Shown: positions 863 through 39,276 of the stretch, piece after piece
How positions within the stretch are numbered: the first letter of the stretch is position 1
Layout: each line of letters begins with the position of its first letter
Source of the DNA: Candidatus Hermodarchaeota archaeon
GTDB lineage: Archaea; Asgardarchaeota; Lokiarchaeia; Sigyniarchaeales; SOKP01
Reading direction: 5' to 3'
NCBI GenBank assembly: GCA_048885525.1
Contig: JBHLLP010000002.1
Coordinates: 75,114-139,113 of the forward strand
DNA: 64,000 nucleotides
The notes under the pieces: generated by a model
Databases searched by the model: none
What the model was told of the DNA's origin: nothing
The model's input: only the letters and a program-made list of their open reading frames with translations
Translations under genes and position numbers: made by a program

Positions 863-1087
863 ATTTCTTCTAGCCAATCACAAAGAAAATCTACCTTAGA
901 AATAGTAGAAAATATTTATAATGCCTTAGATGATGGGAAATTTCATACAATAAGCGAAATTTCTGAAAAGGCAAAGTCGAACTGGATTACAGTAAAAAAT
1001 CAAGTAGAACTTATTAAAAAAATTCAAGATTTACCTAAAATTGATATAATTCATGCCTCAAAGCAGATATTAGTGAGAAAAGTATAA
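863..1087 (+). CDS. Small winged-HTH-like DNA-binding protein (74 aa), probable ATT start
   Basis: Not in the ORF track. (I/M)SSSQSQRKSTLEIVENIYNALDDGKFHTISEISEKAKSNWITVKNQVELIKKIQDLPKI...LVRKV* has an HTH pattern. In-frame TGA at 854-856, GGTGA at 852-856, and no NTG near the 5' end of the frame. Confidence 0.7.
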   Translation: MSSSQSQRKSTLEIVENIYNALDDGKFHTISEISEKAKSNWITVKNQVELIKKIQDLPKIDIIHASKQILVRKV

Positions 1088-1200
1088 TTTAGAAAGGATA
1101 TAAACTTGTATTGTAAGCAGTATCAGAAAAAAATTGTATCTTATACTTACTTTAATGTTAATAAACAAATATTACCCTATTTATCAGAAATATGAGATAA

Positions 1201-1247
1201 ATTATTGTTGAGAAAATTTTTAGTCAATAATTACTGTTGAGAAAATT
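1201..1247. repeat. 18-bp direct repeat (17/18 identical) upstream of tfb
   Basis: ATTATTGTTGAGAAAATT at 1201-1218 and ATTACTGTTGAGAAAATT at 1230-1247. Confidence 0.7.
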
Positions 1248-1432
1248 AAAAAAGACAAAAAAGAAGAAGCCTAAGTAAAGAAGCTTATAGTATTTACAGA
1301 TAATTACAAATTGTAAAAATTTAAAGGCTCAAATAGAATTTCTGACTAAATCAATAAATCTTCCTAGGAAATATGATATCTCTATAGAAGGTTTTTTTTA
1401 AAAAATCTAAAAAAAAAATATTAAAAATTAAT

Positions 1433-2347
1433 ATGATTGAAAATAAAAATAATAAATCGGCTGAGTCAAATAATAAAGAAAAGTGTTGTAGAAATCCAAA
1501 TATTAATATTAGAAATGGGGCAAAGGTATGTTTAAATTGTGGTATGGTAATAGGCGTTGTATTACTACAGAAAGAAAGAAGAGCTTTCACTTTAGATGAA
1601 AGAAGAAAAAGAAAGCGAACTGAAAAAAGGTGGAGAGCTTATGGTCCCAGGACCATTCTTTCAAATGAAATTATAGACAGTAAAGGTAAAATCATTGATG
1701 CTAAAAAAAGATTAAAAATTAAACGTTTATCAAAAATACAAAGATCTTTAACTACAGGAATAGAGAGAAATTTATGGGAAGCTGAGCCAAAAATGTCATA
1801 TCTGGTTTCTAAATTAAATATTCCTGATTATGTTTTTAAAACGGCCTGGACAATTTATAAATCTGCTGCGGAAAAGAAATTAACAATGGGTAGATCGATT
1901 AAAGGATTTATAGCTGCTTCTTTATATGTTGCAATACGAACTTATGAAATTCCTCGGTTATTAGAAGAAATAACTGACGCTCTCTTTATCTCTCGAAGAA
2001 CTGTCATTCGTTCTTTAGGAATATTATTTAGAGAAATATTACCAGATCTTAATCTTAAATATAAACCAATTACACCAGAACAATTAGTATTTAAATTTGG
2101 AAATGAGTTAAAAATACCTATCAAAATACAAAAAAAAGCAGTTAATTTACTAAGATATTCGTCTAATAGAGGGCTTTCTACTAATGGAAAAGATCCAAAA
2201 GGATTTGCAGCTTCAGCTATTTATATGGCGGCAAAATCTACTGATCATCGTAAAACTCAGAGTCAAGTTTCAGATACAGCAAAAATCACAGAAGTAACTT
2301 TAAGAACTAGAATAAAAGAAATTAAAGAATTATCCCGTTTAAATTAA
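1433..2347 (+). CDS. tfb: Transcription initiation factor IIB (TFB) paralog
   Basis: N-terminal zinc ribbon (CC...CLNCG), ERRAF B-reader, two cyclin repeats (GRSIKGFIAASLY; GKDPKGFAASAIY), C-terminal ITEVTLRTR. Confidence 0.95.
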   Translation: MIENKNNKSAESNNKEKCCRNPNINIRNGAKVCLNCGMVIGVVLLQKERRAFTLDERRKRKRTEKRWRAYGPRTILSNEIIDSKGKIIDAKKRLKIKRLSKIQRSLTTGIERNLWEAEPKMSYLVSKLNIPDYVFKTAWTIYKSAAEKKLTMGRSIKGFIAASLYVAIRTYEIPRLLEEITDALFISRRTVIRSLGILFREILPDLNLKYKPITPEQLVFKFGNELKIPIKIQKKAVNLLRYSSNRGLSTNGKDPKGFAASAIYMAAKSTDHRKTQSQVSDTAKITEVTLRTRIKEIKELSRLN

Positions 2348-2357
2348 GAGTGTATTC

Positions 2358-4412
2358 ATGAATTCGAAAGGGTTATTTTTAGTAAGTCCTAACATAGGAC
2401 ATCCCAAAATATTGAATATTGATAGTAAATTAACTAAAAAAGACTTTAAAACAGATTTATTAATCATATCTAATATAAAGAATCCAAAAAAAGTAAAAGA
2501 ATTCTTAACAGATAATATTAAATTAATACCTATTTTTGACTATAAGTGGAAATTAGAACAACTTCTAAAAAAAAGAGGTTTAAGAAAAAAAATCAAACGA
2601 TTATGGAGAAAAATAAAAGCTTTTTTCTCATTTAGAAAAAAGGAAAAACATTTTGAAAGTTCAATAGAAGAATTAGACAAGTTTGGAGAAAAACAAAAAA
2701 GAACAGTAAAAATAAAAAAGAAGGATATAAAGAAAATAAAGCCTCGCGCTTTTAGGGGAATCCCAATAATTACTAAAATCATAAATATAATATCAACAAC
2801 CTCAATAAAGATCAATAACTCAAAATATATTGATGATCAATATTGTAGACCTCAGAATTATTTAAGAAAATTAGACGTTTTTGATAATTTGGATTATTTC
2901 TTTAAAATTACTTTAGAATTTAAAATAACTGATGAGATTTTAAAATTTTTGTCAACCAAAAAGTTCGTAATGTTTGACATTTTAGTTGAAGATATAAATT
3001 TGGACAAAGAAATAAATTATCACGCTATTGTAATTTCAAAAAACGATTGGACAAATATCAATATCATACAAGCAACTGATTTACATATAGCTAAAAGAAA
3101 TGATGAAATATTTGATAAAATAAATAAAATGTATCGAAATCTTAGAAGTAAAAATATTAAAAAAATAAATCAAATAGAAACTAATCAACTAAACTCAAAA
3201 GATAAAGGTGATATTAGAAAATCTCTTTTTAAAATTGATCTCTCATTTAAAAAGAGACTGATTAATCCAAACAATCTTTTTAGAAAATTTATTGAGATTG
3301 TAAATAAGAAAGTAACCAAAAATGAAATTGACTTTATAATTATTACAGGAGATATTGTAGATTTTACTAATATTAGTAAAACACCAGAAAATAAAAATAA
3401 AATTTTTAGGTATAAAAAGAGTAATTGGAAAGTCTTCAAAATAATTGTCTTGAATATAAATCAGACTAATACTAAGGGTGTTAAAAGATCAACGGAAATA
3501 TTATGTCCAATCTTTACCATTCCCGGCAATCATGATTATCGCCCTTGGCAGTATGATTTAAATTGGGGAGGAATTTATAAAAAAATAGGGCTTAAAAAAA
3601 TTGAAGCTCAAGCATTAAAAGATGAATATTCAGCTTCTCCAATCAAAGCTATTTTAAAAAGTGAAAATGCATTAAAAGGATATTTGTCCGAAATAAATGC
3701 TTCACTAAATTACTATTTAAAATTAGAAAATTCTGTGTTTATTTTTTTAAATACTGGGGCGGATTCCTATAAAAAAATAACAGATTTTATATCAGGAAGC
3801 CCTTCTCTAACAGGTCTTACTCACAGGCAAATAGAATTTTTAAATAATATTATTGAATATAAGCACAATAAAAAATCTCAAATTTTTCTTTGTTTGCATG
3901 CACCTCCTATAAATACAAGAGAGAAACGAGGTATATTAAGCCGAATAAAGAAAAAATTTAAAAAAATGATGAGAATACATTTAGATCAGTTCAAAGAATC
4001 TAAATTTGCAAGTCTAAAAAGGAAAAGAGAAAAAGCCAGAATTGATAATAAATTTAATATAACATATGGAACGATTTCTTCTAATTGGGAGAAATTGATT
4101 GATTTTTGTATCAAATATTGTATTCTAACTATCTCAGGTCATACACACATGTTAAATGAATATAGATTGAAAAAATCTTTACAAAATAGCTCTAATGATA
4201 AGGAAGTGAAAAATTCATCTTTTTCAGTATTTTATGATGATTATTCTGAGATTTGTAAAAACATAAAGGATATTCAAAAATATAGTCCCTTTATAGTTCA
4301 AACTCCTGCGCTAGGATTAAAATCCTTTAAAAGACTTAAGAAAGCAGGAGCATATCGAGAAATAATAATAAAAAATGGAAAATTAGATTCATTTCAAGTT
4401 AAATATCTATAA
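2358..4412 (+). CDS. Large Lys-rich calcineurin-like metallophosphoesterase
   Basis: Motifs DLH, GDIVD, GNHD, LHAPP and GHTH appear in canonical order with long basic insertions. Confidence 0.85.
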   Translation: MNSKGLFLVSPNIGHPKILNIDSKLTKKDFKTDLLIISNIKNPKKVKEFLTDNIKLIPIFDYKWKLEQLLKKRGLRKKIKRLWRKIKAFFSFRKKEKHFESSIEELDKFGEKQKRTVKIKKKDIKKIKPRAFRGIPIITKIINIISTTSIKINNSKYIDDQYCRPQNYLRKLDVFDNLDYFFKITLEFKITDEILKFLSTKKFVMFDILVEDINLDKEINYHAIVISKNDWTNINIIQATDLHIAKRNDEIFDKINKMYRNLRSKNIKKINQIETNQLNSKDKGDIRKSLFKIDLSFKKRLINPNNLFRKFIEIVNKKVTKNEIDFIIITGDIVDFTNISKTPENKNKIFRYKKSNWKVFKIIVLNINQTNTKGVKRSTEILCPIFTIPGNHDYRPWQYDLNWGGIYKKIGLKKIEAQALKDEYSASPIKAILKSENALKGYLSEINASLNYYLKLENSVFIFLNTGADSYKKITDFISGSPSLTGLTHRQIEFLNNIIEYKHNKKSQIFLCLHAPPINTREKRGILSRIKKKFKKMMRIHLDQFKESKFASLKRKREKARIDNKFNITYGTISSNWEKLIDFCIKYCILTISGHTHMLNEYRLKKSLQNSSNDKEVKNSSFSVFYDDYSEICKNIKDIQKYSPFIVQTPALGLKSFKRLKKAGAYREIIIKNGKLDSFQVKYL

Positions 4413-4457
4413 ATAGTTTATTCATGACATAAAAAAGCAGTGGAGGTGAAAACTAAA

Positions 4458-4775
4458 ATAAAAGATGAGAAAATATGTCAGATATGTAGCTTTCCAAAAG
4501 AATTATGTATCTGTGAAAAATTAGGAGCCGAGGATCAACAAATAGAAATTTATAATGAAAAAAGAAGATGGGGGAAAAAAGTGACCATTGCTAAGTTTAA
4601 TGGTAACTTTAATATTGATTTAGATAATCTTATTACTAGAGCAAAGAAAAAGTGCGCTTCTGGTGGAACATATGGAGACAATTATATTGAAGTACAAGGA
4701 GATCATCGTTTTAGATTAAAAAAATTTCTAATTAATGAAGGTTTCCCTAAAGAAAAAATTTTAATTGAAGATTAA
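4458..4775 (+). CDS. sui1: Translation initiation factor aIF1 (SUI1); start placed at ATA 4458 (track uses GTG 4440)
   Basis: CxxCxxPxxLCxC zinc knuckle, RRWGKKVT, KKKCASGGT, IEVQGDH. SD GGAGGTGA at 4442-4449 overlaps both GTG codons and sits 8 nt before ATA 4458. Confidence 0.93.
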   Translation: MKDEKICQICSFPKELCICEKLGAEDQQIEIYNEKRRWGKKVTIAKFNGNFNIDLDNLITRAKKKCASGGTYGDNYIEVQGDHRFRLKKFLINEGFPKEKILIED

Positions 4776-4952
4776 AATTGTGAATGATGCATTAATTGGT
4801 TTAAAGCTATAGATGATTTTAGAGAATTTATAATAGATCTGGATTATATCTTTATTATTATAGAGATTTAAAAGCCTCTCTTTTGAAATCAAAAAAAATA
4901 TAAAAAATCAATAAATCACTTGAAAATTAATGATATTCTTCTTAATCCTATC

Positions 4953-5432
4953 TTATTTTTCCTTTAGAAAAAACATTTTTCTCTTGGAATGAACTGCTTC
5001 AAAAGATTCTTTATAAATTTTGATGTCTTCATGTATTTCTTCTAATTCTTCATTTTTCAGCATATTATCAAAAATTCTTTTTGTTGAGAGGTATAATTTA
5101 GGAACAAATGTATCTATTTGAGATAATTGGTAAGCTAGTTCTTTTATTGAAGAAAAATCTAATTTCAAATTAATTTCTTTCCTTTTAATTCTTTCAATAA
5201 TTTTCTTCTCCAATTTTCTTCGTGAAATATTACTCCATGTTATTTCATACACGAAATAATTGACAGACTGAACTGCTTCAGTTAAAAGGGCGGTTCCTGT
5301 TGCTATAAAAATGCTTCCCGTAATCAAATATGCTGTTAAAGTCCCTAATGCTAGCGTTAATGATCTATAAATTATACTTTTAACAATACTTTGTTTCCAC
5401 TCTATTTTCGACAATTTTTTTTTTAATGTCAT
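4953..5432 (-). CDS. DUF2061-like small membrane protein with soluble C-terminus
   Basis: SIVKSIIYR followed by two hydrophobic helices and YFVYEITW. Confidence 0.6.
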   Translation of the reverse strand: MTLKKKLSKIEWKQSIVKSIIYRSLTLALGTLTAYLITGSIFIATGTALLTEAVQSVNYFVYEITWSNISRRKLEKKIIERIKRKEINLKLDFSSIKELAYQLSQIDTFVPKLYLSTKRIFDNMLKNEELEEIHEDIKIYKESFEAVHSKRKMFFLKEK

Positions 5433-5568
5433 CTCAAAGTTTTTATAATTCCTATTTTATAAGAATTTCAGTTAATATATTTAATAATTTTTTTCTTAAT
5501 TAATCAATAATGAATATTCTCCAAATTGTCTTTTTGAAAAAAAAGTTTCTTTAAAAAAAAATGAAGCA

Positions 5569-6231
5569 CTAGTCATATTCTAAAGATTTATAACAAAACC
5601 ACCAATCATAGCACCTATATTCCTTAGATCTTTGTTCTGCTGTTTCTTCATCTGTGGGGGGTGGTATTATAACTTGTTGACTAATTAATTCATTATTTGG
5701 CCAATTTGCAGGAATTGCAACCTTCTCTTGATCTGCATTTTTCAGGGCTTTAATTATTCTAATAATTTCATCTATATTTCGACCAAGTTCTTGTGGATAA
5801 AAGAGAATTACTCTTATTACTGTCTTTGGATCAACAATAAAGACAGCTCTAACAGTATTAGGTCCTTTACCAAGATGGATCATGCCCAGTCTTTTAGCAA
5901 TATTACCATTATCAGCAATTATTGGAAATGGTATTTTTACTCCTAATTTTTCGGCAATCCATTCTATCCATTTTAAATGTGAAAAAACCTGATCTATGGA
6001 AAGTCCTACTAATTCACATTCTAATTTTTGGAATTCTTCATATCGCTTTGCAAAAGCTACATATTCAGTTGTACACACAGGTGTAAAATCTGCAGGATGA
6101 CTAAAAAATACAAACCATTGTCGTTTAAAATCTTTTGGAATTTCTTTTTTACCGTGAGTTGTTATTACTTCCATCTCTGGAAATTTATCACCAATTAATG
6201 GAAATGAATTAGAATTTTTAGAGTTATTCAT
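5569..6231 (-). CDS. Peroxiredoxin (Prx6 / archaeal type)
   Basis: [27 protein letters not shown]-terminal CYDWWFC. Confidence 0.95.
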
Positions 6232-6310
6232 ATAATTTCACCTCAGATATTTTTTTTATTATATCTTATTATATTCTTTTTAATTAGATATCAAATTTTA
6301 ATCGATAATC

Positions 6311-6577
6311 TTATGGTTTTGATATTTTTTTGTTTATGTAATCTATTATTATCAAATTTTTGGGTTCTAATTTCATTTTTCCTATATCTTTTGATATCTC
6401 ATTTAAAACATTCTTTTTATTAGAACGATCTTTTATCCTTGAGATTATTTTAATTTTTAATTCTTTGTTCCTCTTAAACCTTAAATTATTTTTCTTGGTT
6501 TGTTCTAATTTTCTAATATTTCCTGATTTTAAGTATTTTTTATTATTTTTTTCATTGCTATGTGTCAAATTTTTCAT
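6311..6577 (-). CDS. Possible small basic hypothetical protein (doubtful)
   Basis: 88-aa K/N-rich ORF on the same strand as its neighbours; no motif; composition could reflect AT-rich noncoding DNA. Confidence 0.3.
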   Translation of the reverse strand: MKNLTHSNEKNNKKYLKSGNIRKLEQTKKNNLRFKRNKELKIKIISRIKDRSNKKNVLNEISKDIGKMKLEPKNLIIIDYINKKISKP

Positions 6578-6910
6578 CTGTTTATTATATTCTATTAATT
6601 CTATTATTAAATTTAACTATTACTTAATTTTCTCTGAAGTAATTTAAAATAATAATTTGAGTCTTATAGGATAATTGATTTGGTTAGTTTTTATAAACTA
6701 TATATCTAAGGATTAATTTTAGATTTCCTAAGTTAATAAATTTCAAACCATTTTTATATATTTTCTTAAAAAATACATACCTTTTAATTTTTTTGTTTTA
6801 AAAAGATAAAAATTAAAATTATTTTATTGTATAGACATTATTAGAGTAATTATTTTATAATTTAAGGTTATTCCTATGCTCTCTTTTAAGTTTCAAATTA
6901 CATAATAGAT

Positions 6911-7930
6911 TCAATTTTTATCTTTTTCTAATATTGATTCATAAACCTTAATGTAATCATCAACCATTCTTTCAACAGAAAACTTTTTTTCAACCCATCT
7001 TCGACATTCTGAGCGATCAATAAGATCAATTTTTTTTAATGCATTAATTGCTTCTTCATGAGAATTGACTAAAAAGCCAGTTTTTCCATTTACAATTACT
7101 TCAGCCATACTACCTTTGTTAAAAGATATTACGGGTGTTCCACAAGCCATTGCCTCTACAACTGACAATCCAAATGCCTCAGGAATATTAATAGGGTTTA
7201 ATAATGCATAAGCTCCTCCTAATAACTCATCTCTTTTCTTTGGATCAGCAATACCAACATACTTGACTAATTCATCATCAAGGAAAGGTTCAATATTTCT
7301 TTTAAAATAATCCTTATCTTGAATAATTCCTGCTAAGATTAATTTCATTTCAACTTTAAGAGCCATTTCAATAGCTTCTTTAGCACCTTTATCATGATGT
7401 AAACGACCAAAAAATATTAGATAATCTTTTGGATTAGATTTAAAAGTAAATTGGTTCAAATCTATACCATGATATACCGTAGCTATATAATTTAATTCTG
7501 GAATTCTAGCAGCATTACTTATAGAAACGTAATAACTCTGATTATTGTATTTCTTATACACAGGTAAAATTTTGGGAGATGAGATACCATGAATTGTTGT
7601 TACCACAGGAGTGGATGTCATTTTTATATATGTTAATGGTAAAAAATCAAAATGGTTATGAATAATATCAAAATCATCTCCTCTTTCGAACAATTCAGAT
7701 ATATGTAAACATTCCCATACTTTTGGAATTATTTGATTATCTTCTTCATAACCATGTTCACAAACACCAACAAGATTTGCTTTAGTAATGGAATTTTTTG
7801 TAGCAAATAAAGTGACATCAATCCCTTTCTTTATAAGTCCTTCTGTCAATAAAGAGACTATATATTCCCATGGTCCATAAGAGCGAGGAGGAGTACGCCA
7901 TGCGATTGGTGAGAGTATTGCTACGTGTAT
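6911..7930 (-). CDS. Glycosyltransferase family 4; probable ATA start at 7930 or 7933
   Basis: The frame extends upstream of the track's TTG through HVAILSPIAWRTPPRSYGPWE, the GT4 N-terminal strand and loop. C-terminal EAFGLSVVEAMACGTP. Confidence 0.92.
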   Translation of the reverse strand: MHVAILSPIAWRTPPRSYGPWEYIVSLLTEGLIKKGIDVTLFATKNSITKANLVGVCEHGYEEDNQIIPKVWECLHISELFERGDDFDIIHNHFDFLPLTYIKMTSTPVVTTIHGISSPKILPVYKKYNNQSYYVSISNAARIPELNYIATVYHGIDLNQFTFKSNPKDYLIFFGRLHHDKGAKEAIEMALKVEMKLILAGIIQDKDYFKRNIEPFLDDELVKYVGIADPKKRDELLGGAYALLNPINIPEAFGLSVVEAMACGTPVISFNKGSMAEVIVNGKTGFLVNSHEEAINALKKIDLIDRSECRRWVEKKFSVERMVDDYIKVYESILEKDKN

Positions 7931-7932
7931 TA

Positions 7933-8892
7933 TTAGTCACCTAATACAAAATTTTGCTTTTCAAGCCATTTAAGAATTTCTGAAAGACTTGCGGTTGCCA
8001 AAGCTATAGAACTATCAGCACATCCATAATAAAGTAGGATATCATCATTTTCTTGAATCCAGCCACATGGAAAAACAACTTTATCAACATCACCAAAGAT
8101 TTCATACGATTCTTTTGGAGAAAAGACCCACTCATCAGATCGTGCGATTACTTTGCAGGGATCTTTTAGATCTAAAAGTCCAAGTCCTAAGCGATAAATG
8201 ATACCACTAGCGGTTGTTTTAACTCCATGGTAAAGTATTAACCATCCAGAATCAGTTTTCAATGGAGGGGGAGATAAACCAATTTTATTTGCATCCCACC
8301 AACTTCCATCTCTAGCGGGAATAAGAAGTTTGTGATCACCCCAATGTTTAAGATCCGGTGAAAAAGCAATCCATATATGGGCACCAGTTCCTGACATTTT
8401 AGCAACGGGTCTATGAAGTATTGCCCATCGATTATTAAACTGAATTGGAAATATAGCAGCATCCTTGTTCTCTGGTGGCATAATAACCCCATAACGATTA
8501 AAATGCTTGAAATCTTTGGTACATGCTAATGAAACTAAAGGTCCAGCTTTAGAATAGGCAGTATAGATAATAACCCATAAATTTTTTTCTTCCAAGAATG
8601 TAATTCTAGGATCTTCAATACCCCATATTTCTTCTGGATAAGTCTTAGGATTTGGTGTCATAGTAGGTTGGGTATCAATATGCCAATTACTTATTCCATC
8701 TTTACTACGAGCTAAAGTAAAATGGGAAATTCCTCTTTTATCTTCTACTCTCATTAGAAGTATAATTTCATTATGAAATTTAATTGCACCTGCATTGAAA
8801 ACTGTATTCGCAAGATAAGGCAAATCTTTTATTGAAATAATTGGATTGGCTGGATGCCGCTTAAAAAGCTCATTAAAATTTGATTTTACGAT
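7933..8892 (-). CDS. GH130-like glycosidase/phosphorylase (five-bladed beta-propeller); probable ATC start
   Basis: FKRHPANPII (upstream of the track start), VFNAGA, GIEDPRI, NKDAAIFP, LHRP, YHGV, VVFPCG, YYGCAD. Confidence 0.9.
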   Translation of the reverse strand: MVKSNFNELFKRHPANPIISIKDLPYLANTVFNAGAIKFHNEIILLMRVEDKRGISHFTLARSKDGISNWHIDTQPTMTPNPKTYPEEIWGIEDPRITFLEEKNLWVIIYTAYSKAGPLVSLACTKDFKHFNRYGVIMPPENKDAAIFPIQFNNRWAILHRPVAKMSGTGAHIWIAFSPDLKHWGDHKLLIPARDGSWWDANKIGLSPPPLKTDSGWLILYHGVKTTASGIIYRLGLGLLDLKDPCKVIARSDEWVFSPKESYEIFGDVDKVVFPCGWIQENDDILLYYGCADSSIALATASLSEILKWLEKQNFVLGD

Positions 8893-8905
8893 TAGATTAA
8901 CACCT

Positions 8906-10132
8906 TTAAAATTCTAATTCTAAATTAACCTTTTGACAAGTTTTTTTAGCTTCTCTTGCTAGTTTGTATGCTTGATTATATTGTTTAGCAATAATTTCCC
9001 AAGAAACTACATTATCAAGATATCGCTTTAAATTCTCACCAAGTTTCAGTCGAAGATTCTCATTACAAGCTAGTTGAATTACCCTTTCTTTTAGCATTTT
9101 CTTTGTTGTAAATAATAAACCTCCACCACTTTCTAAAGTTTGAGCTGTTAATCCTTCCATTGGGGCTGTTGTTACATAAGGTTTATTTAAAGCTATTATC
9201 CTTGCTAATGTTCCAGATTGTGTTTCGTCAACCGTAGGTAATACAATGAAATCACAAATTGCCATTACTTTATAGTAGATATCTCCTCTAGGGATAAATT
9301 CATAATAATGAGCGATCCCTTTGTCTTGAAGTTCAAGAATGTCAGATTTCCACATTTCATAATCATTTTTATGATTCGGGTCTCGTAAAGTACCTGCAGC
9401 AAATAATTCCCATTTCTGACCACACTTTTCTTTTATCTTTTCATGAATCTCTCCCCAACTTGAAAGTAGTATGTCCCATCTTTTATTAGTTTGTATCCAT
9501 CCAATCATTCCAACAAGATGATCTGATAAATTCAATTGATCTAAACCCAGCTCTGTCTTTAATTTATTAATTTCATCTATTCCCCATCTTTTATCAGATC
9601 GGGCACCATGTGGAACCACCATAATATTTTTTGGAGTTTCCCATCCTCGGGCTCTAAAAGACCAATCCAATCTCCACTTTTGATAATGGCATTTAAAAAA
9701 AACTACATCACTTCTTTGGCAAAGTTGATAAATAAAATCAGCTTCAAAATCAGTAATCCGTCCATGAATAGTATGTGGTTCAACTACAATGGGATAATCA
9801 TCAATTGCCTCAAGAAGTTTAAGAAAACCTTCATTTCTATCCCCTATCCCACGTTTATCTCTATATTCATAAAGTCCATATTCATGTTCTAAATGAATTG
9901 CATATGGTTTCAACTCATCAATTTTTTTTGCAATAGGTTCATACCAATCATATCTATTTATCTCAATTAAAGGAAAAACCCCTTCTCCTTCTCCATCTGT
10001 ATGGCTAATTACAAAAACATCCCTTTGAGGATTTGTCTTTTGGATGAACTCTCTTGCTTCTTCAGCAAATGTAGCAATACCACAAAGTCGTGGTGGGTAA
10101 GAACTTATTATTACTATTGGTTGATTTGACAT
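8906..10132 (-). CDS. Glycosyltransferase family 4-like
   Basis: SSYPPRLCGIATF, EHEYGLY, VVPHG, QSGTLA; paralogous to the N-terminal half of 10137-12434. Confidence 0.88.
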   Translation of the reverse strand: MSNQPIVIISSYPPRLCGIATFAEEAREFIQKTNPQRDVFVISHTDGEGEGVFPLIEINRYDWYEPIAKKIDELKPYAIHLEHEYGLYEYRDKRGIGDRNEGFLKLLEAIDDYPIVVEPHTIHGRITDFEADFIYQLCQRSDVVFFKCHYQKWRLDWSFRARGWETPKNIMVVPHGARSDKRWGIDEINKLKTELGLDQLNLSDHLVGMIGWIQTNKRWDILLSSWGEIHEKIKEKCGQKWELFAAGTLRDPNHKNDYEMWKSDILELQDKGIAHYYEFIPRGDIYYKVMAICDFIVLPTVDETQSGTLARIIALNKPYVTTAPMEGLTAQTLESGGGLLFTTKKMLKERVIQLACNENLRLKLGENLKRYLDNVVSWEIIAKQYNQAYKLAREAKKTCQKVNLELEF

Positions 10133-28426: not shown

Positions 28427-29905
28427 ATGGTTTTTAAAGATTTTGATTTAATTTATAAAGATAACCGTTGTGAGATTAAAGATAAACAGAAGATAGAATT
28501 GAAATTAAAGGAAATTTTAGGGGATAACAATGTTTCAACAAAAAAAATTGATATTTTGGCTTATACCAAGGATACATCACTTATAACATTGAATTGGACA
28601 ATCCAAGGTCAAATTGCTGGATTACCAGATTTTGTAACATGGCCAGAAACTACAGAACAAATTAGCGAAATTCTAAAGTTTGCAAATCAAGAAAAGATTC
28701 CAATTATACCATATGGTGAAGGATCTGGAGTTGTTGGTGGAGCAATACCTATTCATGGTGGAATTATACTTGATATGAAGAAATTTAATAAAGTTCTTGA
28801 AATAAATGATAAAAATTTAACAGTTACTGCTCAAACAGGTATAAATGGAATGAATCTAGAGCGATATTTAAATAATAAAGGATATACAACTGGGCATATA
28901 CCCCAATCTCTTTATATTTCTTCTTTAGGAGGATGGATTGCACATCGAGCAGCTGGTCAATTTAGTACTAAATATGGAAAAATTGAAGATATAATATTAG
29001 GAATGGAAGTAATATTACCTCAAGGTGAAATTATTAATTTTAAAACCATCCCTAGGGCTGCAACAGGACCCCAATTAGATAGATTATTCATTGGAGGAGA
29101 AGGTACTCTTGGAATCGTTACAAAAGCCACTTTAAAAATTTGGCCTAATCCAGAAAAAAGATCATTACTCTCATATGCTTTTCCGACTATTGAGGATTCT
29201 TATAATGCTATTAGAGAAATTTTAAGGGAAAATATTTATCCCGCGGTAATAAGGATTTATGATCAAGGTGAAACCTCAAGGCATTTTCCAGACATAAATA
29301 ATGCAAAAGATAAAGTTATGGCAATATTTGTTTGTGAGGGAAATTCAAAACTAGTTGATTTAGAAGTTTCAATAACTATGGAAAAATGCGAGAAAAATTC
29401 TGGGGATGACTGTGGCTTACATCCTGTAGAACATTGGTTTGAGACAAGATTTAGAGTAACAGAAACTTCAGCAATGCCTCCATACAAAATAGTATTTGAT
29501 ACTATTGAAGTAGCTTCACTATGGGAAAATGCTTCAAAAGTTTATCATTCTGTTTTGGAATCAATGAAAAAGTTGCAAGGAATTATAGTGATTACTGCAC
29601 ATATTTCGCATTTTTATCCAAATGGTGTAGGGATTTATTTTAGTTTTGGTGGTGTTCCCGGAAAAGAAGAAACAGATTTGAAATACTACAAAAAATGCTG
29701 GAATACAGTAATTAAAAGTGTTTTAGAATCTGGTGGTTCAATCGCCCACCATCATGGAATTGGAATTAATAGAGCTCATTGGATGGAAAAAGAATGGGGA
29801 GCGTCTTTGAAAACATTAAAGGAAATAAAAAAATTACTAGATCCAAATAATATTCTAAATCCCGGTAAAGTTTATTCAGATATCTGGAATGGAGGTGAAA
29901 CATAA
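28427..29905 (+). CDS. FAD-binding oxidoreductase (VAO family), alkyl-DHAP-synthase-like
   Basis: PYGEGSGVVGG, GHIPQS..SSLGGWIA, GEGTLGIVT, DTIEVA, HISHFY..G..IYF, GSIAHHHGIG. Confidence 0.85.
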   Translation: MVFKDFDLIYKDNRCEIKDKQKIELKLKEILGDNNVSTKKIDILAYTKDTSLITLNWTIQGQIAGLPDFVTWPETTEQISEILKFANQEKIPIIPYGEGSGVVGGAIPIHGGIILDMKKFNKVLEINDKNLTVTAQTGINGMNLERYLNNKGYTTGHIPQSLYISSLGGWIAHRAAGQFSTKYGKIEDIILGMEVILPQGEIINFKTIPRAATGPQLDRLFIGGEGTLGIVTKATLKIWPNPEKRSLLSYAFPTIEDSYNAIREILRENIYPAVIRIYDQGETSRHFPDINNAKDKVMAIFVCEGNSKLVDLEVSITMEKCEKNSGDDCGLHPVEHWFETRFRVTETSAMPPYKIVFDTIEVASLWENASKVYHSVLESMKKLQGIIVITAHISHFYPNGVGIYFSFGGVPGKEETDLKYYKKCWNTVIKSVLESGGSIAHHHGIGINRAHWMEKEWGASLKTLKEIKKLLDPNNILNPGKVYSDIWNGGET

Positions 29906-31180
29906 ATGGGGGTCGAAGAAACATTAAAAAAATATAATTGGATTCTACCGTATATTCAAAATGCCGATAGAACAACAAGATCACTGATAATGAAAAATTT
30001 TAGGCAGAAAAAAGCAAATTTTTTTCCAGAAGGAGAATATAAAGCTGATGTGGACAACCTAATTAAATGCACGTTATGTCCTAATATGTGTAGGTTTGAT
30101 TGTGGGACATTGCAGGCATCATTAACTGAGACAATGAGTCCTGCTTATAAGGCTAGAATTGGCTATTATTTAACAACTGGGAAAATTGATCCTTTAGATA
30201 AAGAAAACAATGCCTTCATAGATTTAATGTATTTATGCACAAATGAAGAGAACTGTAAAATATGGTGCCCTTTTGAATTTTCAGTTGTATCACTTTTAGA
30301 AACTGTCAGAGATGATTTAAATGATAAAGGCTTGATGCCAGATTATTGTAAACAGCAGATTAATAAGTTAAATAAGACCAATACTATAGAAGAATATAAC
30401 ATTTTTGAAACTTATAAAGAAAAAGGAATAGAAAATATTGAAACCGAAGGAAATGATGATGTTTTCTATTATATTGGATGTGAATCAATGAAATTTCCAG
30501 AGGTAGTAAATGCAAATATCCAAATTTTAAAAAAAGCTGGAATCAAATTTTCCACCAATCTTGAGAAAAAAGTATGTTGTGGAGGTCCAGCTTTTAATAT
30601 AAGAGATCTTGAGACCGCTGAAAAATTTGCAAATAAAAATAACGAGCTTATAGCATCTACTGGAGCAAAAGTCATTGTATCAGATTGTCCCGGCTGTGTT
30701 TTAACATTAACAAATAGATATGAAAAAGCAGGAATTAAAACTGAAAAAGAAATTTTACATACTACTCATTTTTTTAAGAAATTATTCGATAATGGAAAAT
30801 TACAAGTTATAAGGAAGCTTCCAGATGATTATAAGCGAATAACAATCCATGATCCCTGCCTTATTGCAAGAAACTTAAATGATACAGAATCAATTAGAGA
30901 AATTCTTAATAAAATTCCAAATTTAGAAATTTTTGAACCAGTATATAACAAAGAGTATGTACATTGCTGTGGTTGGAGTGGAACAGCTCATTGGGCAGAT
31001 AAAGACTTAGCTATCAGAGAAGCACGGAATAGAATTAATGAATTAAAAGAAACTGAGGCAATAATTTTCATATCAGCATGTCCTCTCTGTGAATTAGGAC
31101 TATCTTATGGAATAGAAGATACAGAAAAAGAAAAATATAATATATTGGATATATCTGAAATATTAATAAGAGTATTATAA
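29906..31180 (+). CDS. GlpC/HdrD-like Fe-S oxidoreductase (two CCG domains)
   Basis: CTLCPNMC, C..C...CP, CCGG, DCPGC, HDPC, CCG, ACPLC; SD GGAGGTGA at 29891-29898. Confidence 0.88.
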   Translation: MGVEETLKKYNWILPYIQNADRTTRSLIMKNFRQKKANFFPEGEYKADVDNLIKCTLCPNMCRFDCGTLQASLTETMSPAYKARIGYYLTTGKIDPLDKENNAFIDLMYLCTNEENCKIWCPFEFSVVSLLETVRDDLNDKGLMPDYCKQQINKLNKTNTIEEYNIFETYKEKGIENIETEGNDDVFYYIGCESMKFPEVVNANIQILKKAGIKFSTNLEKKVCCGGPAFNIRDLETAEKFANKNNELIASTGAKVIVSDCPGCVLTLTNRYEKAGIKTEKEILHTTHFFKKLFDNGKLQVIRKLPDDYKRITIHDPCLIARNLNDTESIREILNKIPNLEIFEPVYNKEYVHCCGWSGTAHWADKDLAIREARNRINELKETEAIIFISACPLCELGLSYGIEDTEKEKYNILDISEILIRVL

Positions 31181-33630: not shown

Positions 33631-33672
33631 CTATTACATGTATTTCTTTTAATCACACTTTATTGAATTATT

Positions 33673-34047
33673 ATGAGTGAAAATTATAAATTTAATGATA
33701 ATAATTTAACTATTTCATTTTTCAAAGATGAAGTGAAAAAATTCGTTGAAAATCGTAATTGGAATAAATACCATTCCCCTAAAAATTTAGTTCAAGCTAT
33801 TAATTGTGAAGCTGGAGAATTATCTCAATTATTATTATTTAAAGATTATACGAAGGAAGAGATATGGAAGAATGAAACTCTTCTTAGAAATATTGGTGAT
33901 GAAATTGCTGATGTGTTTATATACCTTTTAAGTCTTATTAATGCTCTAGGTTTAGATTTGAGCCGAAGTTTCATAAACAAAATGGAAAAAAATAAAAAGA
34001 AATACTCAAGCAAAGAATTTAATAATGGAATTTATTATAAAAAATAA
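33673..34047 (+). CDS. MazG-like nucleotide pyrophosphohydrolase (dCTP pyrophosphatase type)
   Basis: RNW..YHSPKNL..EAGEL, DEIADV, KN.KKY. Confidence 0.9.
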   Translation: MSENYKFNDNNLTISFFKDEVKKFVENRNWNKYHSPKNLVQAINCEAGELSQLLLFKDYTKEEIWKNETLLRNIGDEIADVFIYLLSLINALGLDLSRSFINKMEKNKKKYSSKEFNNGIYYKK

Positions 34048-34064
34048 AAATTTGAGAATTTAAA

Positions 34065-34535
34065 ATGCCAAGTATAAATGAAAATCTGTTAGCTCCATGT
34101 GGGCTATATTGTGGTGTGTGTGCTATACATATTGCTGATCGAGACAATAATTTAAAGTTTAAAAAAATACTTGTGGATGTTTACAAACCGATTTCTAAAA
34201 CTATTGATGACATTAAATGTTCGGGTTGTCTCTCAAAAAACCAAGAGGATATATTTGGATATTGTCAAACATGTCCTATCAGAGATTGTATAATCAGTAA
34301 AGGATTTGATGGTTGTTATCAATGTAATGATTTTCCATGCAAGTTTATAGAAAATTTCCCTATTCCTGTTGGCAAAAAAGTTATTCTAAGGGCAATACCT
34401 CGATGGAAAGAAATAGGAACTGAAAAATGGGTCGAAGAAGAGGAGAAGAGATACCATTGTCCTGAATGTGGTAATTCTTTATTCCGAGGAGCAAATAGAT
34501 GTAATAAATGTGGAATTTCAGTTAATGTTGATTGA
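34065..34535 (+). CDS. DUF3795-like cysteine-rich protein
   Basis: APCGLYCGVC, CSGC, CPIRDC, CYQC..FPC, CPECG. Confidence 0.8.
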   Translation: MPSINENLLAPCGLYCGVCAIHIADRDNNLKFKKILVDVYKPISKTIDDIKCSGCLSKNQEDIFGYCQTCPIRDCIISKGFDGCYQCNDFPCKFIENFPIPVGKKVILRAIPRWKEIGTEKWVEEEEKRYHCPECGNSLFRGANRCNKCGISVNVD

Positions 34536-34597
34536 AGAATATGTTATTTTTTTATTAATAATAAGAATTTTTATAGATTTTTCTATTATTTTTTAAC

Positions 34598-35575
34598 ATG
34601 GTTATTAAGAATATTGATGGAATAATTAAGGAACAATTAAACTATACCTTAAATGAAACAAACATTCCTAACTTGGGGAAATTATATAGAGGTAAAGTTA
34701 GAGATAACTACATAAAACAAGATACCAGAATAATTATAGCAACAGATCGTTTAAGTGCTTTTGATAGAGTAATAACCACCATTCCATTTAAGGGTCAAAT
34801 GCTAAACCAAGTTTCATCATTCTGGTTTGAAAAAACTAAAGAGATCGTAAAGAATCATATTATAGATATTCCAGATCCAAATGTGGCGGTCGTCCATCAA
34901 TGTAAAACAATTTTAGTTGAAGTGATAGCAAGAGGATATCTAACTGGTAGTATGTGGCGTGATTATAATAAAGGAAAACCCACTTCGGGTATAATGCCTC
35001 CTAGAGGGATGCAAAAAAATCAAAAGTTTGATGAAATAATTCTAACCCCATCTACAAAAGCAGAATCAGGTCATGATATTTACCTTTCGAGAGAAGAAAT
35101 CTTAGAAAAGGAAATGGTTGAGAAAGATGTGTATGAGAAAATGGAAGAAGCCGCAATTAAATTATTTAAATTTGGACAAAATTTTTGCGAAAAGAATGGT
35201 CTTATCCTAGTTGATACCAAATATGAATTCGGATTAAAAGATGGAGAATTAATGGTCATTGATGAAATACACACACAAGATTCATCCCGATTTTGGATAC
35301 TTGAAACTTATGAAGAAAAATTTCAAAAAGGAGATGTCCCCGATATTCTAGATAAAGAAATCTTTAGAAAATGGCTTATGGATACGTACCCTGAAATTTT
35401 TCCAGATATTAAGCCTGATGAAAAAATTCCTCCAATTTCAGAAGATATTAAAATTGAATTAGCAAAAAGATATATGCGAAGTTATGAAAAGATTACTGGA
35501 CTAGAGTTTAAGGCAGAAATTTCAGATGTTCAGAAAAGGATTTATAAAAATTTAAAGAAAGCCAATTATTTATAG
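34598..35575 (+). CDS. purC: SAICAR synthetase
   Basis: GKVRDNY, TDRLSAFD, RGYLTGS, TPSTK, DTKYEFG, DSSRFW. Confidence 0.97.
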   Translation: MVIKNIDGIIKEQLNYTLNETNIPNLGKLYRGKVRDNYIKQDTRIIIATDRLSAFDRVITTIPFKGQMLNQVSSFWFEKTKEIVKNHIIDIPDPNVAVVHQCKTILVEVIARGYLTGSMWRDYNKGKPTSGIMPPRGMQKNQKFDEIILTPSTKAESGHDIYLSREEILEKEMVEKDVYEKMEEAAIKLFKFGQNFCEKNGLILVDTKYEFGLKDGELMVIDEIHTQDSSRFWILETYEEKFQKGDVPDILDKEIFRKWLMDTYPEIFPDIKPDEKIPPISEDIKIELAKRYMRSYEKITGLEFKAEISDVQKRIYKNLKKANYL

Positions 35576-35621
35576 AATTTAAGAAAAATTTATATAATAA
35601 TTCATAGTAATTTATCGTATT

Positions 35622-35825
35622 ATGCTAAATTTAATATTTTTATTTATAGATTTTACTTTATTTATTCTCAGTTTTATATTTATAATCCTAGATCTCAAAA
35701 GTTATAAAGAAGAAAAAAATGAAGAACTAAAAGGAACTGTAATACCAAAACGAAGTCGTTATGCATTATTATTTGGTCTATTAGCACTAATTCTTGCTGT
35801 AATTATTAGTTTAGGGTATACTTAA
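35622..35825 (+). CDS. Small two-TM membrane protein
   Basis: 67 aa, two hydrophobic helices separated by a charged loop. Confidence 0.55.
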   Translation: MLNLIFLFIDFTLFILSFIFIILDLKSYKEEKNEELKGTVIPKRSRYALLFGLLALILAVIISLGYT

Positions 35826-36050
35826 TTTAATAACTACTATTACTGAGATTATATTGCTTTTTTTTTATATAGATTTCCTTAATTAGTTTTTCTTTTAACC
35901 AATTTAATTTTTCTTGGAAAATTAGGTTTTAGTATAGTGTAATTACTTAAATTTTGTTTAGGAGATCTAAGTTCTTGTCGTTTTTGTCGATGAGCATTAT
36001 TTTTAAGTTAATAAGAATTAATAAAAATATATACAACTTCTTTTTCACAA

Positions 36051-36320
36051 ATGGATTACCAAGAATTTGAAGTAGAAATAACGTTAATGAATAAACCAGC
36101 AGCGAGGGATCCAGTAGGAGAAACTATTCAAAAAGACCTTTTAGCAAAAAAAGGTTATGATTTGGTATTTAATGTTCGTTCAGGGCAATTCTTGAGAATT
36201 AAACTTAATGCTGTTGATGAAAATCAAGCTAAAAAAATGGTAGAAAAAATGTGTAATGACCTACGAATTTTCAATCCAGTTACTCAAAATCTAACTATTT
36301 TAAAAGTATCAAAATCATGA
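36051..36320 (+). CDS. purS: FGAM synthase subunit PurS
   Basis: DPVGETI, VRSG, NPV; overlaps purQ (ATGA). Confidence 0.93.
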   Translation: MDYQEFEVEITLMNKPAARDPVGETIQKDLLAKKGYDLVFNVRSGQFLRIKLNAVDENQAKKMVEKMCNDLRIFNPVTQNLTILKVSKS

Positions 36321-37030
36321 ATATAAAAATAGCTGTAATCGAATTCGCAGGTAGCAACTGTGATTTAGATACTATACATGTTTTGAAAAACGTTATCGAT
36401 GGAATTGAAGCGGATCTAGTATGGCATAATCACTTTAAGGAATCGAAATATGATGGAGTAATTTTACCTGGAGGATTTGCATTTGGAGATTATTTAAGAG
36501 CAGGAATAATTGCTGCTCACAGTCCAGCAATTGATGAAGCACGAATAATGTTAAATGATGGAAGACCTGTAATAGGTATCTGTAATGGATTCCAAATATT
36601 AACAGAAGCACAATTTCTCCCAGGTGCTTTATTACGAAATGATTCACTTAAGTTTGTCTGTAAGTGGGTTAATTTGAAAGTGGAAAATAATAATACTGCA
36701 TTTTCTAATAAAATGAAATTAGGAGAGGTATGTACTTTACCTATAGCTCATGCTGAGGGACGATATTTTGCTGATAATCTGAAAGAGTTAGAGGAAAATG
36801 ACCAAATTGTTTTTAGATATTGTACCGAACAAGGAACACTTACAGAAGAAGCGAATCCAAATGGTTCTTTAGAAAATATTGCAGGAATTTGCAATTTAAA
36901 CCGAAATTGTATTGGATTAATGCCTCATCCTGAACGTGCATCAGAAGCAATATTAAGTCCAAAAAGAACGACCCATGGAAAATTATTTTTCGAATCCATG
37001 ATAGAATTCATCAAACGGAGGTTATCATAA
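36317..37030 (+). CDS. purQ: FGAM synthase glutaminase subunit PurQ
   Basis: GSNCD, PGGFAFGDYLRAG, GICNGFQ, NPNGS, MPHPER. Confidence 0.97.
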   Translation: MNIKIAVIEFAGSNCDLDTIHVLKNVIDGIEADLVWHNHFKESKYDGVILPGGFAFGDYLRAGIIAAHSPAIDEARIMLNDGRPVIGICNGFQILTEAQFLPGALLRNDSLKFVCKWVNLKVENNNTAFSNKMKLGEVCTLPIAHAEGRYFADNLKELEENDQIVFRYCTEQGTLTEEANPNGSLENIAGICNLNRNCIGLMPHPERASEAILSPKRTTHGKLFFESMIEFIKRRLS

Positions 37031-39276
37031 TAACGAAGGTAGATGTTAACGGAACGGAAGTTGATGTGGAAATAACTAACGATGAGTATGAAAAAGTAAA
37101 AGCTTTATTACAGAGAGATCCAAATATAACTGAATTAGGGATGTTTGATGTAATGTGGAGTGAACATTGCTCTTATAAATCATCACGACCAAAATTAAAG
37201 ATATTCGAGGATGCTGAGGCAAATTATAACTATGTTTTAGCGGGTCCTGGACAAGATGCTGGAGTTATCGATATCGGAGATGGTTACGCATTAGCATTTC
37301 GAATAGAATCTCATAATCATCCATCTGCAATTGAACCTTATCATGGAGCTGCTACTGGGATTGGAGGTATAATAAGAGATATTCTATGCATGGGTGTTCG
37401 ACCAATAGCACTATTGGATCCATTGAGATTTGGTCGTTTAAAAGATAATCCTCATTCACAATGGTTATTTAAATATGTAGTAAAAGGTATTGCTGATTAT
37501 GGTAATTGCACTGGAATACCAACCATTGGTGGAGAAGTTGAATTTGATAATAGTTTTGAGAGTAATTGTTTAGTAAATGTAGCATGTATAGGATTAGGAA
37601 CTATAGATGATTTTAAACATGCACCGAGTAGAGCTTACAATCCTGGTGATTATGTAATTTTAATGGGAGGATCTACAGGAAGAGATGGTATCCATGGAGT
37701 TACATTTGCATCCCGTACTTTAACTGAAATGTCTGAAGCTGATAGACCTGCTGTTCAAATTGGTGATCCATTTACCAAGAAAATGATTATTGAAGCAACT
37801 TTAGAAGCTATAAAAACAGGATATGTAAGAGGATTAAAGGATCTTGGTGGAGGCGGTTTAACTTGCGCAACTAGTGAATTAACGGGAGATGGTAATACAG
37901 GAGCAAAGGTAGATTTAAGAAAAGTCTTTACAAGAGAACCTGGAATGAATTCTTATGAAATAATGCTTTCTGAGTCACAAGAAAGAATGGCTTTCATTGT
38001 TAAACCTGAAGGATTAGATACTGTTCTTGACGTATTTAGAAAATATGAAATAAATTTTGCTGTCATAGGGAAAACTGATGATTCGAAAGTTCTAAAAGTA
38101 TATAATAATGATAATCTTGTCGTAAATATCCCCTCGAAAGCCCTTTCAGAATCACCAACATTTAAGCGACAAGAGAAGCGACCGTTATATCTAGATGAAT
38201 TACTATCTCAAAAAACACCAGAACCAAATTTAGGATTAGATGAAATTATTTATAAATTAATAGCATCTGAAAATATATGTAGTAAAGAATGGGTTTATCG
38301 ACAATACGATCATGAAGTTGGTGTTAGATCTGTTGTAAAATGTGGTGAAGGTGATTCAGGTGTTTTAAGAATAATTGGTACAAATAAATTTATTACTGCG
38401 AGTGTTGGCGTTAATTCTAAGCATTGCTTTTTAGATCCTTATGAAGGAGTTAAAGGAGGATTAGTTGAAGAATGTGGTAACGTAATAGCAAACGGAGGAA
38501 AACCAATGGCTATGGTAAATTGCTGTAATTTTGGAAATCCTGAAATTCCCGAATCATTTTGGTATTTTTCTCAAGCTGTTGAAGGTATGAATGATTTTTG
38601 TAGAACTTTAAAAATTCCTATAATAGGAGGAAATGTCTCCTTTTATAATGAAGATGAAGTTAAAAAAAAGGCTATTAAAGCAACTCCCATGATTATGATC
38701 ATAGGACTTATCGAAGGTGAAGAAAACATAATTACACTTCCTTTTAAGAATGCAGGGGATTATATATTTCTAATAGGTGAAACTAAAGCAGATTTAGGTG
38801 GTTCAGAGTATCATTCAGTAATTTACAATCTAGAAGGAGGAAATCCCCCTAAAGTTGATGAATCAAAGATAAAATCAACTTGGGATTTTTTATTCGAGCT
38901 CTATAAATACAGATTAGTTAAAGCTAACCACGATGTAAATAAAGGAGGGTTTATAATAACACTAGCTGAAATGTGTTTTATGAATAATTTGGGAGTGGAT
39001 TTAGATCTTACAGACTGTTTTGATGAAAATTTGAAAGATGATGAAATTTTATTCAGTGAATCTAATGGTAGATTTATTATTGAAACAGATCCAAAAGATA
39101 ATAAACAAATAATAGATTTAGCTAATAAATTTGGGATTTCTCTTAAAAAAATAGGTGTTATAATACCTCAACCTGAAATTAAAGTAAAAGGGTTAAAAAA
39201 TAAAGTTTTTACACTCTCTATTCCAAAATTAAAGGAAAAATTCGATTCCACAATTCCAAATTTAATGGAATTATAA
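37030..39276 (+). CDS. purL: FGAM synthase subunit PurL; probable ATA start at 37030 (track uses GTG 37066)
   Basis: WSEHCSYKSS, ESHNHPS, TGRDG, SESQERM, FGNPE, GGNVSFYNE. SD GGAGGT at 37017-37022. Confidence 0.97.
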   Translation: MTKVDVNGTEVDVEITNDEYEKVKALLQRDPNITELGMFDVMWSEHCSYKSSRPKLKIFEDAEANYNYVLAGPGQDAGVIDIGDGYALAFRIESHNHPSAIEPYHGAATGIGGIIRDILCMGVRPIALLDPLRFGRLKDNPHSQWLFKYVVKGIADYGNCTGIPTIGGEVEFDNSFESNCLVNVACIGLGTIDDFKHAPSRAYNPGDYVILMGGSTGRDGIHGVTFASRTLTEMSEADRPAVQIGDPFTKKMIIEATLEAIKTGYVRGLKDLGGGGLTCATSELTGDGNTGAKVDLRKVFTREPGMNSYEIMLSESQERMAFIVKPEGLDTVLDVFRKYEINFAVIGKTDDSKVLKVYNNDNLVVNIPSKALSESPTFKRQEKRPLYLDELLSQKTPEPNLGLDEIIYKLIASENICSKEWVYRQYDHEVGVRSVVKCGEGDSGVLRIIGTNKFITASVGVNSKHCFLDPYEGVKGGLVEECGNVIANGGKPMAMVNCCNFGNPEIPESFWYFSQAVEGMNDFCRTLKIPIIGGNVSFYNEDEVKKKAIKATPMIMIIGLIEGEENIITLPFKNAGDYIFLIGETKADLGGSEYHSVIYNLEGGNPPKVDESKIKSTWDFLFELYKYRLVKANHDVNKGGFIITLAEMCFMNNLGVDLDLTDCFDENLKDDEILFSESNGRFIIETDPKDNKQIIDLANKFGISLKKIGVIIPQPEIKVKGLKNKVFTLSIPKLKEKFDSTIPNLMEL

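Follow-up and report, generated by a model that had tools for sequence, protein, structure and literature searches.

The DNA analysed here is a window of 64,000 nucleotides from an assembly deposited as Candidatus Hermodarchaeota archaeon (GenBank GCA_048885525.1, contig JBHLLP010000002.1, positions 75,114 to 139,113; G000:C2:75114-139113 in our numbering). The source is a metagenome-assembled genome (MAG) of Lokiarchaeia (Promethearchaeota, the Loki-type Asgard archaea), which comprises 3.58 Mb in 87 contigs with 29.4% GC. Five genes of the window probably begin at ATA, ATT or ATC (collectively ATH) behind a Shine-Dalgarno (SD) motif, as had been proposed in an earlier reading made from the letters of the window (the sequence-only reading). 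The coordinates of all five sites were confirmed on the sequence. In the following, ATG, GTG and TTG are termed canonical start codons.

Genes with probable ATH start codons in the window

A small gene of 74 codons on the forward strand (863..1087, stop TAA 1085-1087) has its putative start, ATT 863, 6 nt behind a GGTGA core (852..856) that itself contains the in-frame stop TGA 854-856, and its first in-frame canonical codon is a GTG close to the C-terminus. It had been labelled a winged helix-turn-helix gene; a Pfam search with the 74-aa product matched no family. Orthologs from eight of eight species, this genome included, carried GGTGN followed by 6 nt and then ATT (seven) or ATA (one), and none had a canonical codon there. 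A frameshift, in which one added A would bring GTG 858 into frame, had been named as a way in which this site could fail. It was rejected because the arrangement of GGTGN, 6 nt and ATT or ATA is kept in the eight species, whereas the A-run at the start varies among them.

Two adjacent genes on the reverse strand encode a GH130 protein of the mannoside phosphorylase family (7933..8892; Pfam Glyco_hydro_130) and a 339-aa GT4 glycosyltransferase (6911..7930; Pfam Glycos_transf_1 and Glyco_transf_4). The GH130 start, ATC 8892, is preceded at 8 nt by AAGGTG (8901..8906) and further upstream by the stop TAG 8916-8914, and no canonical codon occurs before TTG 8823. In seven of seven orthologs, counting this genome, the start falls 7 codons before a conserved E-L-F motif and reads ATC in three, ATA in two and ATG in two. 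One T added to a run of five would put the out-of-frame ATG 8873 into frame; against such an error, the T5 run and the frame of the N-terminal extension are kept while neighbouring bases change synonymously (AAA/AAG, GAG/GAA). In the GT4 gene, the SD motif AGGTGA (7937..7942) holds the in-frame stop TGA 7939-7937, which is followed by CTA, ATA 7933, ATA 7930 and then HVAILSPIAWRTPP, with the first canonical codon, TTG 7849, 27 codons 3' of ATA 7930. Both ATA codons had been considered as the start. The orthologs support ATA 7930, which lies 6 nt behind GGTGA, and not 7933: the homologous codon in relatives is ATG in five, TTG in one and ATT in one. The public gene call (MHVAIL..., 339 aa) likewise begins at ATA. 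With the start at 7930, the GH130/GT4 junction is therefore not a TAATA overlap, as it would have been at 7933.

The TAATA overlap did hold for purQ/purL. The putative purL start, ATA 37030 (37030..39276, forward strand; Pfam AIRS/AIRS_C), shares its first base with the purQ stop TAA 37028-37030, its SD motif GGAGGTtATC (37017..37026) lies inside the end of purQ, and the next canonical codon is GTG 37066. For purL, 26 relatives of the genus were compared; the counts were ATG in 22 and ATC (G002), TTG, GTG and ATA (this genome) in one each, while one distant genome did not align; most of these relatives have a TAATG overlap. In one purL ortholog (G022:C46:7191-8300), the N-terminus matches in two pieces within a single 924-aa open frame, and an insertion or duplication may have occurred near its start.

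The fifth site belongs to one of two aIF1/SUI1 paralogs of this genome, which are 63% identical and located in the window (4428-4775) and at G000:C32:32284-32595 (the main copy). The window copy (4458..4775, forward strand; Pfam SUI1) probably starts at ATA 4458, 8 nt behind the SD motif GGAGGTGA (4442..4449). In the alignment, this ATA falls on the ATT with which the main copy starts, and an ortholog (G025) has ATT at the same place. The in-frame GTG 4440 and GTG 4446 fall within the SD motif, and the public gene call takes GTG 4446, giving 109 aa. This second copy was found in only 2 of 36 genus relatives searched, the G025 ortholog with ATT and a broken one with two TAA codons (G007). An ordinary SD-led start in the window, GGAGGTGA followed by 7 nt and ATG 29906 (29891..29908, forward strand), was confirmed as a control.

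ATH codons are associated with SD motifs genome-wide

The 3' end of the 16S rRNA of this genome reads ...CUGGAUCACCUCCU, and the full SD sequence is therefore GGAGGTGATC, a consensus complementary to the 16S rRNA 3' terminus ...GGAUCACCUCCU. Upstream of 1,470 unambiguous ATG starts, the G content rose from 8% to about 25% at -14..-8, and the position matrix placed GGTGA at -11..-7, corresponding to a 6-nt spacer. An SD motif of at least 5 nt preceded only about 10% of ATG genes, which agrees with the description of SD motifs as rare in Lokiarchaea (PMC7531240, PMC12993045).

A genome-wide scan for SD motifs followed by ATH, proposed in the sequence-only reading as a check, was carried out on 2,869 non-overlapping stop-to-stop open reading frames (ORFs) of at least 120 codons, in which, from the stop on the 5' side up to the first canonical start, each in-frame codon was scored for its distance to an SD 5-mer. 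An SD motif of at least 5 nt at a spacing of 6-7 nt preceded 57 of 3,585 ATH codons versus 42 of 8,389 control codons (AAT, TTA, TAT, TTT and AAA; Fisher odds ratio 3.2, p = 1.3e-8), an excess over AT-rich codons in which the controls predict a background of about 18 of the 57 ATH cases. The corresponding counts for canonical codons were 97 ATG, 27 TTG and 6 GTG, so that, with the background subtracted, ATH made up about one quarter of the strongly SD-led genes at this spacing.

ATH codons are tied to the 16S-complementary motif at the spacing typical of ATG. The spacing peak was 4-7 nt for ATG and 6-7 nt for ATH (ATA 15+5, ATT 18+13, ATC 3+1), and the AT-rich codons showed no peak at 6-7 nt (AAT 1+1, TTA 3+1, TAT 2+1, TTT 3+2). 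The ATH share grows with the length of the SD motif, the ATH:ATG ratio being 34:69 for a run of 5 nt, 14:21 for 6 nt and 9:7 for at least 7 nt. Among 66 occurrences of GGTGA followed by 6 nt and at least 100 open codons, the codon in the start position was ATH in 27, ATG in 9 and TTG in 5. Other near-cognate codons were not enriched behind SD motifs of at least 5 nt (CTG 2/102; ACG/AAG/AGG 2/964). Motif counts over the raw genome without ORF context were uninformative, as coding periodicity dominated them.

In 43 cases, at least 7 codons separated the ATH codon from the first canonical one (26 ATT, 13 ATA and 4 ATC). Altogether, about 40-60 intact genes of this genome, or roughly 1.5-2%, are estimated to start with ATH. 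An equivalent test on 800 kb from another family (G044) gave a weak signal (ATH 10/646 versus control 8/1474) with one convincing case, GAGGTGAT followed by 6 nt and ATA before a 945-aa permease-like protein.

Conserved protein domains extend upstream of the first canonical codon

At least 12 genes encode a Pfam domain that reaches upstream of the first ATG, GTG or TTG. These domains mostly began at residues 2-10 of the ATH-initiated translation and at profile positions 1-4. The domain started at residue 2 in a Ras-like GTPase (first canonical codon 24), at residue 4 in an MGMT-type DNA_binding_1 protein (codon 92 of 108), and at residue 6 in AFOR_N (AOR; codon 30), Rubrerythrin (codon 95) and a GPN-loop GTPase (codon 20). 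It started at residue 8 in DsrE (codon 32), a Fer4 ferredoxin (codon 21) and a cytidylyltransferase (codon 21), at residue 10 in ThiF (codon 62) and at residue 68 in CorA (codon 144). In the proteasome alpha subunit, Proteasome_A_N covers residues 9-31 and the first canonical codon is codon 10; for ribosomal protein uL16 and a HIT protein, it is codon 39 and codon 62. In the small gene, GT4 and GH130, the reading frame held no canonical codon from the preceding stop up to the conserved N-terminus, and in the at least 12 Pfam genes the domain began ahead of the first such codon. Judged from these reading frames, an ATH codon is the sole possible start of many conserved genes.

Paralogs within the genome follow the same pattern. 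Three coiled-coil proteins sharing the N-terminus ISIDWAKAE.KPDKK (G000:C24:27750-28598, C36:29049-29759 and C36:29891-30622) all have ATT behind GGTGA or GGTGG, and a second paralog pair, IPRRYYAKSKK... (C59 and C82), likewise has ATT starts. The three coiled-coil proteins also gave weak matches resembling a crescentin rod.

ATH starts recur and turn over among relatives

The uL16 start, which is ATA in this genome, was compared across 80 species-level Promethearchaeota genomes and found to be ATG in 56, ATC in 15, TTG in 6 and GTG in 3. All 15 ATC starts sit behind GGTGN and 6 nt. On a uL16 DNA tree built with the start codon excluded, at least 18 changes of start-codon state were counted and ATH was limited to a subclade of 52 rows, within the limited resolution of a single-gene tree. 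A canonical codon or another ATH codon occupied the homologous position for uL16, GT4, GH130, purL, the small gene and aIF1. Given this recurrence in MAGs from many independent studies, sequencing error and isolated inactivating mutation, the latter named beforehand as a way in which the sites could prove spurious, are therefore excluded. Together with the scan and the domain starts, the orthologs in dozens of independent genomes bear out the claim that AUH initiation is widespread in this lineage.

Two contigs with Loki-type uL16 and aIF1 genes (L076 and L306, DATKTW01) carry the title 'Candidatus Nanopelagicaceae bacterium'; this MAG is probably mis-binned or mislabelled.

The aIF1 gene has a conserved AUU start

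The main aIF1 gene starts with ATT in 28 of 28 genomes of the genus, two codons past an in-frame TGA TAA. Across 78 named Promethearchaeota genomes, the start is ATT in 75 and ATC in 3. In these 78 genomes a canonical start is impossible 5' of the CPxC zinc knuckle, and the first downstream canonical codon lies at codon 15-86. The leader contains an element, AGGTTGTGA, at -18 to -10 that is at least 95% conserved (67 distinct sequences from the 78 genomes, rows L246-L325), whereas the flanking intergenic DNA is variable. The element, located around G000:C32 position 32605 in this genome, is an imperfect SD motif (GG..GTGA) with a 9-nt spacer and an invariant TT at both mismatch positions; it might be a tuned weak SD motif or the site of a regulator. 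In other families of the class, aIF1 starts with ATA in G042, G046, G056 and G060 (and probably G049), cases that span three further families, with TTG or GTG in six genomes, and with ATG in four to five.

The genes for aIF1A, aIF2 alpha and aIF2 beta of this genome all start with ATG, so that, among the initiation factors examined, the weak start is confined to aIF1. As cited in PMC6237735, aIF1 destabilises non-AUG complexes in Sulfolobus, and eukaryotic eIF1 is autoregulated via a weak start site, an AUG in poor context (Ivanov et al. 2010). That aIF1 alone has a conserved weak start suggests negative feedback on it of the infC or eIF1 kind. By analogy, and only tentatively, Lokiarchaeia may possess such a loop, built on the near-invariant AUU (75 ATT and 3 ATC in 78), the invariant imperfect SD motif AAGGTTGTGA and its suboptimal 9-nt spacing. 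In this loop the aIF1 level would set both its own synthesis and that of an 'AUH regulon' of about 40-60 genes, among them uL16, proteasome alpha, purL and GTPases. The likeness to the infC AUU/IF3 and eIF1 loops lies in the weak start that the gene of the fidelity factor itself carries; aIF1 is homologous to eIF1 and, in the rejection of non-AUG codons, functionally corresponds to IF3. The weak element in Loki aIF1 is the codon itself, as in bacteria, whereas in eukaryotic eIF1 it is the context.

Probable SD-positioned near-cognate initiation and its alternatives

These observations are very probably explained by intact genes that are translated from ATA, ATT or ATC through SD-positioned near-cognate initiation with ordinary initiator Met-tRNA. 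The SD motif would pair with the 16S rRNA 3' end and thereby bring the codon that lies 6-7 nt 3' of it into the P site, where the ordinary initiator Met-tRNA (anticodon CAU) would accept ATH despite the third-position mismatch and methionine would presumably be inserted. A strong and exactly spaced SD motif would offset the weak codon. Under AT mutation pressure (29% GC), ATG would frequently mutate to ATA or ATT, and such changes would be tolerated where the SD motif is strong and well spaced. If ATH is tolerated in this way, start codons would therefore drift among ATG, TTG, GTG and ATH.

Several points weigh against this explanation. Tests in haloarchaea by Hering and colleagues in 2009 reportedly found only AUG, GUG and UUG to be functional. 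The ORF set was built crudely, background is expected to account for about one third of the 57 ATH matches, and some of the SD signal of the control codons stems from neighbours of true starts. For purL and the second aIF1 copy of this genome, a nearby in-frame GTG could replace ATA. The earlier preference for ATA at these two genes is supported by alignment and orthologs (ATT in G025 for aIF1, ATC in G002 for purL) and remains qualified by the GTG codons.

The alternative that survives best, though it is unlikely, keeps the same gene starts and changes the decoding chemistry: AUH would be read as cognate by an initiator tRNA modified at C34 in the manner of 5-formylcytidine (f5C), or by another tRNA such as tRNA-Ile. 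Mitochondrial AUA and AUU starts work via this modification of tRNA-Met, and the third-position selectivity seen here, with ATH enriched and CTG and ACG/AAG/AGG not, would fit it. The same selectivity, however, occurs in bacteria with unmodified C34, and the single initiator-type tRNA-Met gene found (ARAGORN, introns allowed) is ordinary, with A1:U72, three G-C pairs in the anticodon stem and the anticodon CAT. No dedicated AUH initiator tRNA was seen among the 24-34 tRNAs detected, an incomplete set (24 with the Rfam tRNA model), and base modifications are invisible in DNA. A regex search for CAT anticodon loops returned nothing tRNA-like, owing to introns, which were observed in many tRNA genes of this genome.

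It is also very improbable that translation starts at the first downstream ATG, GTG or TTG, giving shorter proteins, and that the pairing of SD and ATH is coincidental. Prodigal-type gene calls choose such starts, and in a few genes, where a canonical codon lies just 1-5 codons 3', either reading fits. A downstream start would cost half of CorA, almost the whole MGMT-like protein, the zinc knuckle of aIF1 and the P-loops. Moreover, the N-terminal extensions change synonymously and so are conserved at the protein level, the place of ATH is taken by ATG in relatives, and the enrichment behind SD motifs (p = 1e-8) argues against coincidence.

An equally poor prospect is that ATH works only via termination-reinitiation at overlaps of the TAATA type. 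The purQ/purL junction, with TAATA where relatives have TAATG, and the GT4 start 2 nt past the GH130 stop would be in line with it. Yet an upstream gene on the same strand lay within 30 nt in only 21% of the 43 high-confidence ATH genes, compared with 39% of ATG genes with an SD motif and 14% of genes lacking one, which makes it unlikely that these starts depend in general on stop/start coupling. In addition, 40% of the ATH genes have a divergent upstream neighbour, and the small gene, uL16 and aIF1 are preceded by AT-rich intergenic DNA. A stop/start overlap was seen at purQ/purL and was absent at GT4 (start 7930), the small gene, uL16 and aIF1.

Finally, assembly or sequencing errors (misread ATG, homopolymer indels) or decaying pseudogenes have a negligible chance of accounting for the pattern: beyond the single-base repairs conceivable at GH130 and the small gene, the window does contain one gene that appears frameshifted (an alpha/beta hydrolase at about 61260-62052). 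Against such errors stand the recurrence of an identical frame and ATH codon (ATC, ATT or ATA) in MAGs of different studies and the essential nature of affected genes such as uL16, proteasome alpha and aIF1.

Relation to known AUH initiation

ATT, ATC and ATA are among the start codons of NCBI translation table 11, and the textbook cases in bacteria are infC and pcnB of E. coli. SD-positioned initiation in Lokiarchaeia would share with them the third-position mismatch with CAU, the dependence on an SD motif, a weak codon, the restriction to a minority of genes and the involvement of a fidelity-factor gene. The apparatus differs: the discriminating factor of the infC type, IF3, is absent from this archaeon, which has aIF1 (SUI1), aIF1A, aIF2 and unformylated Met-tRNAi. 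The scale is also far larger, covering about 1.5-2% of genes including uL16 and proteasome alpha, and the codon turns over freely with ATG among species. The Loki case works like the bacterial infC-type case and is nevertheless a separate system. Mitochondrial AUA/AUU initiation likewise uses isoleucine-family start codons in AT-rich genomes, but it requires tRNA-Met with f5C34 together with an altered genetic code and has no SD motif.

A literature search turned up no account that treats archaeal AUH starts systematically. For AtubA in an Asgard MAG of the Kariarchaeaceae (Heimdall group), a single 'rare ATT start codon' with a ribosome-binding site has been proposed (Sci Adv 2026, PMC13394414), in a case where a conserved N-terminus similarly required an upstream ATT at a plausible distance from that site. 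That report concerns one gene, with the rarity mentioned in its methods section, whereas ATH use in Lokiarchaeia is genome-wide, statistically supported and phylogenetically conserved. In ribosome profiling of Haloferax volcanii, about 30% of putative alternative initiation sites were near-cognate and were set aside as possible false positives (PMC7261190). They hint that archaeal ribosomes can use such codons, but they are alternative and not sole starts of conserved genes, and the mRNAs are mostly leaderless. SD-led AUH initiation as such is an established type of event; what is unexpected is its occurrence in this domain and on this scale.

Teaching on archaeal initiation recognises only AUG, GUG and UUG; here, an apparatus of the eukaryotic type would take third-position mismatches when an SD motif fixes the P-site codon. 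The turnover among ATG, KTG and ATH points to AT mutation pressure and SD strength jointly setting the choice of start codon. The conserved AUU on aIF1 is the most interesting lead. Its presence on aIF1 but not on aIF1A or aIF2 offers a testable hypothesis and, if that is true, a fidelity loop that joins those of bacterial infC and eukaryotic eIF1.

There are also consequences for annotation. Prodigal-type calls cut or lose conserved N-termini in Asgard MAGs, such as the aIF1 zinc knuckle and GTPase P-loops, and the loss distorts the protein families and structures used for work on eukaryote origins. The prediction that standard gene callers would truncate or miss these genes was correct for the JGI, ENA and Logan calls, in which aIF1 is shortened to 83-84, 90 or 70 aa. 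It was too broad for NCBI, whose records translate Loki aIF1 from ATT (MKDDDICP..., named 'YciH'), and for GT4, which is already called from ATA.

Additional features of the window and genome

An ORF at 61312-62052, whose first 55 codons include no canonical start, was considered as a further ATH case and rejected, as it belongs to the frameshifted alpha/beta hydrolase gene mentioned above. In that gene (61260-62052, forward strand), the sequence ...FHGHPGSRL is followed by TAA and the fold resumes in the +1 frame (IKLFGEKPKENGVRIIGIDRPGFGLS), with a Pfam match from profile position 25. Either the gene is a pseudogene, or the shift reflects an indel of the assembly or a site of recoding. An Rfam scan of the 64-kb window gave zero matches. 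Elsewhere in the genome, a tRNA-Sec with anticodon TCA was located at G000:C8:66342-66434, and an in-frame TGA may accordingly encode selenocysteine at some sites. Most genes of the window have ATG without a recognisable SD motif (best match at most 3 nt), for example at ATG 1433, 2358, 5432, 12434, 17799 and 19336, and these genes may be leaderless or use another mode of initiation.

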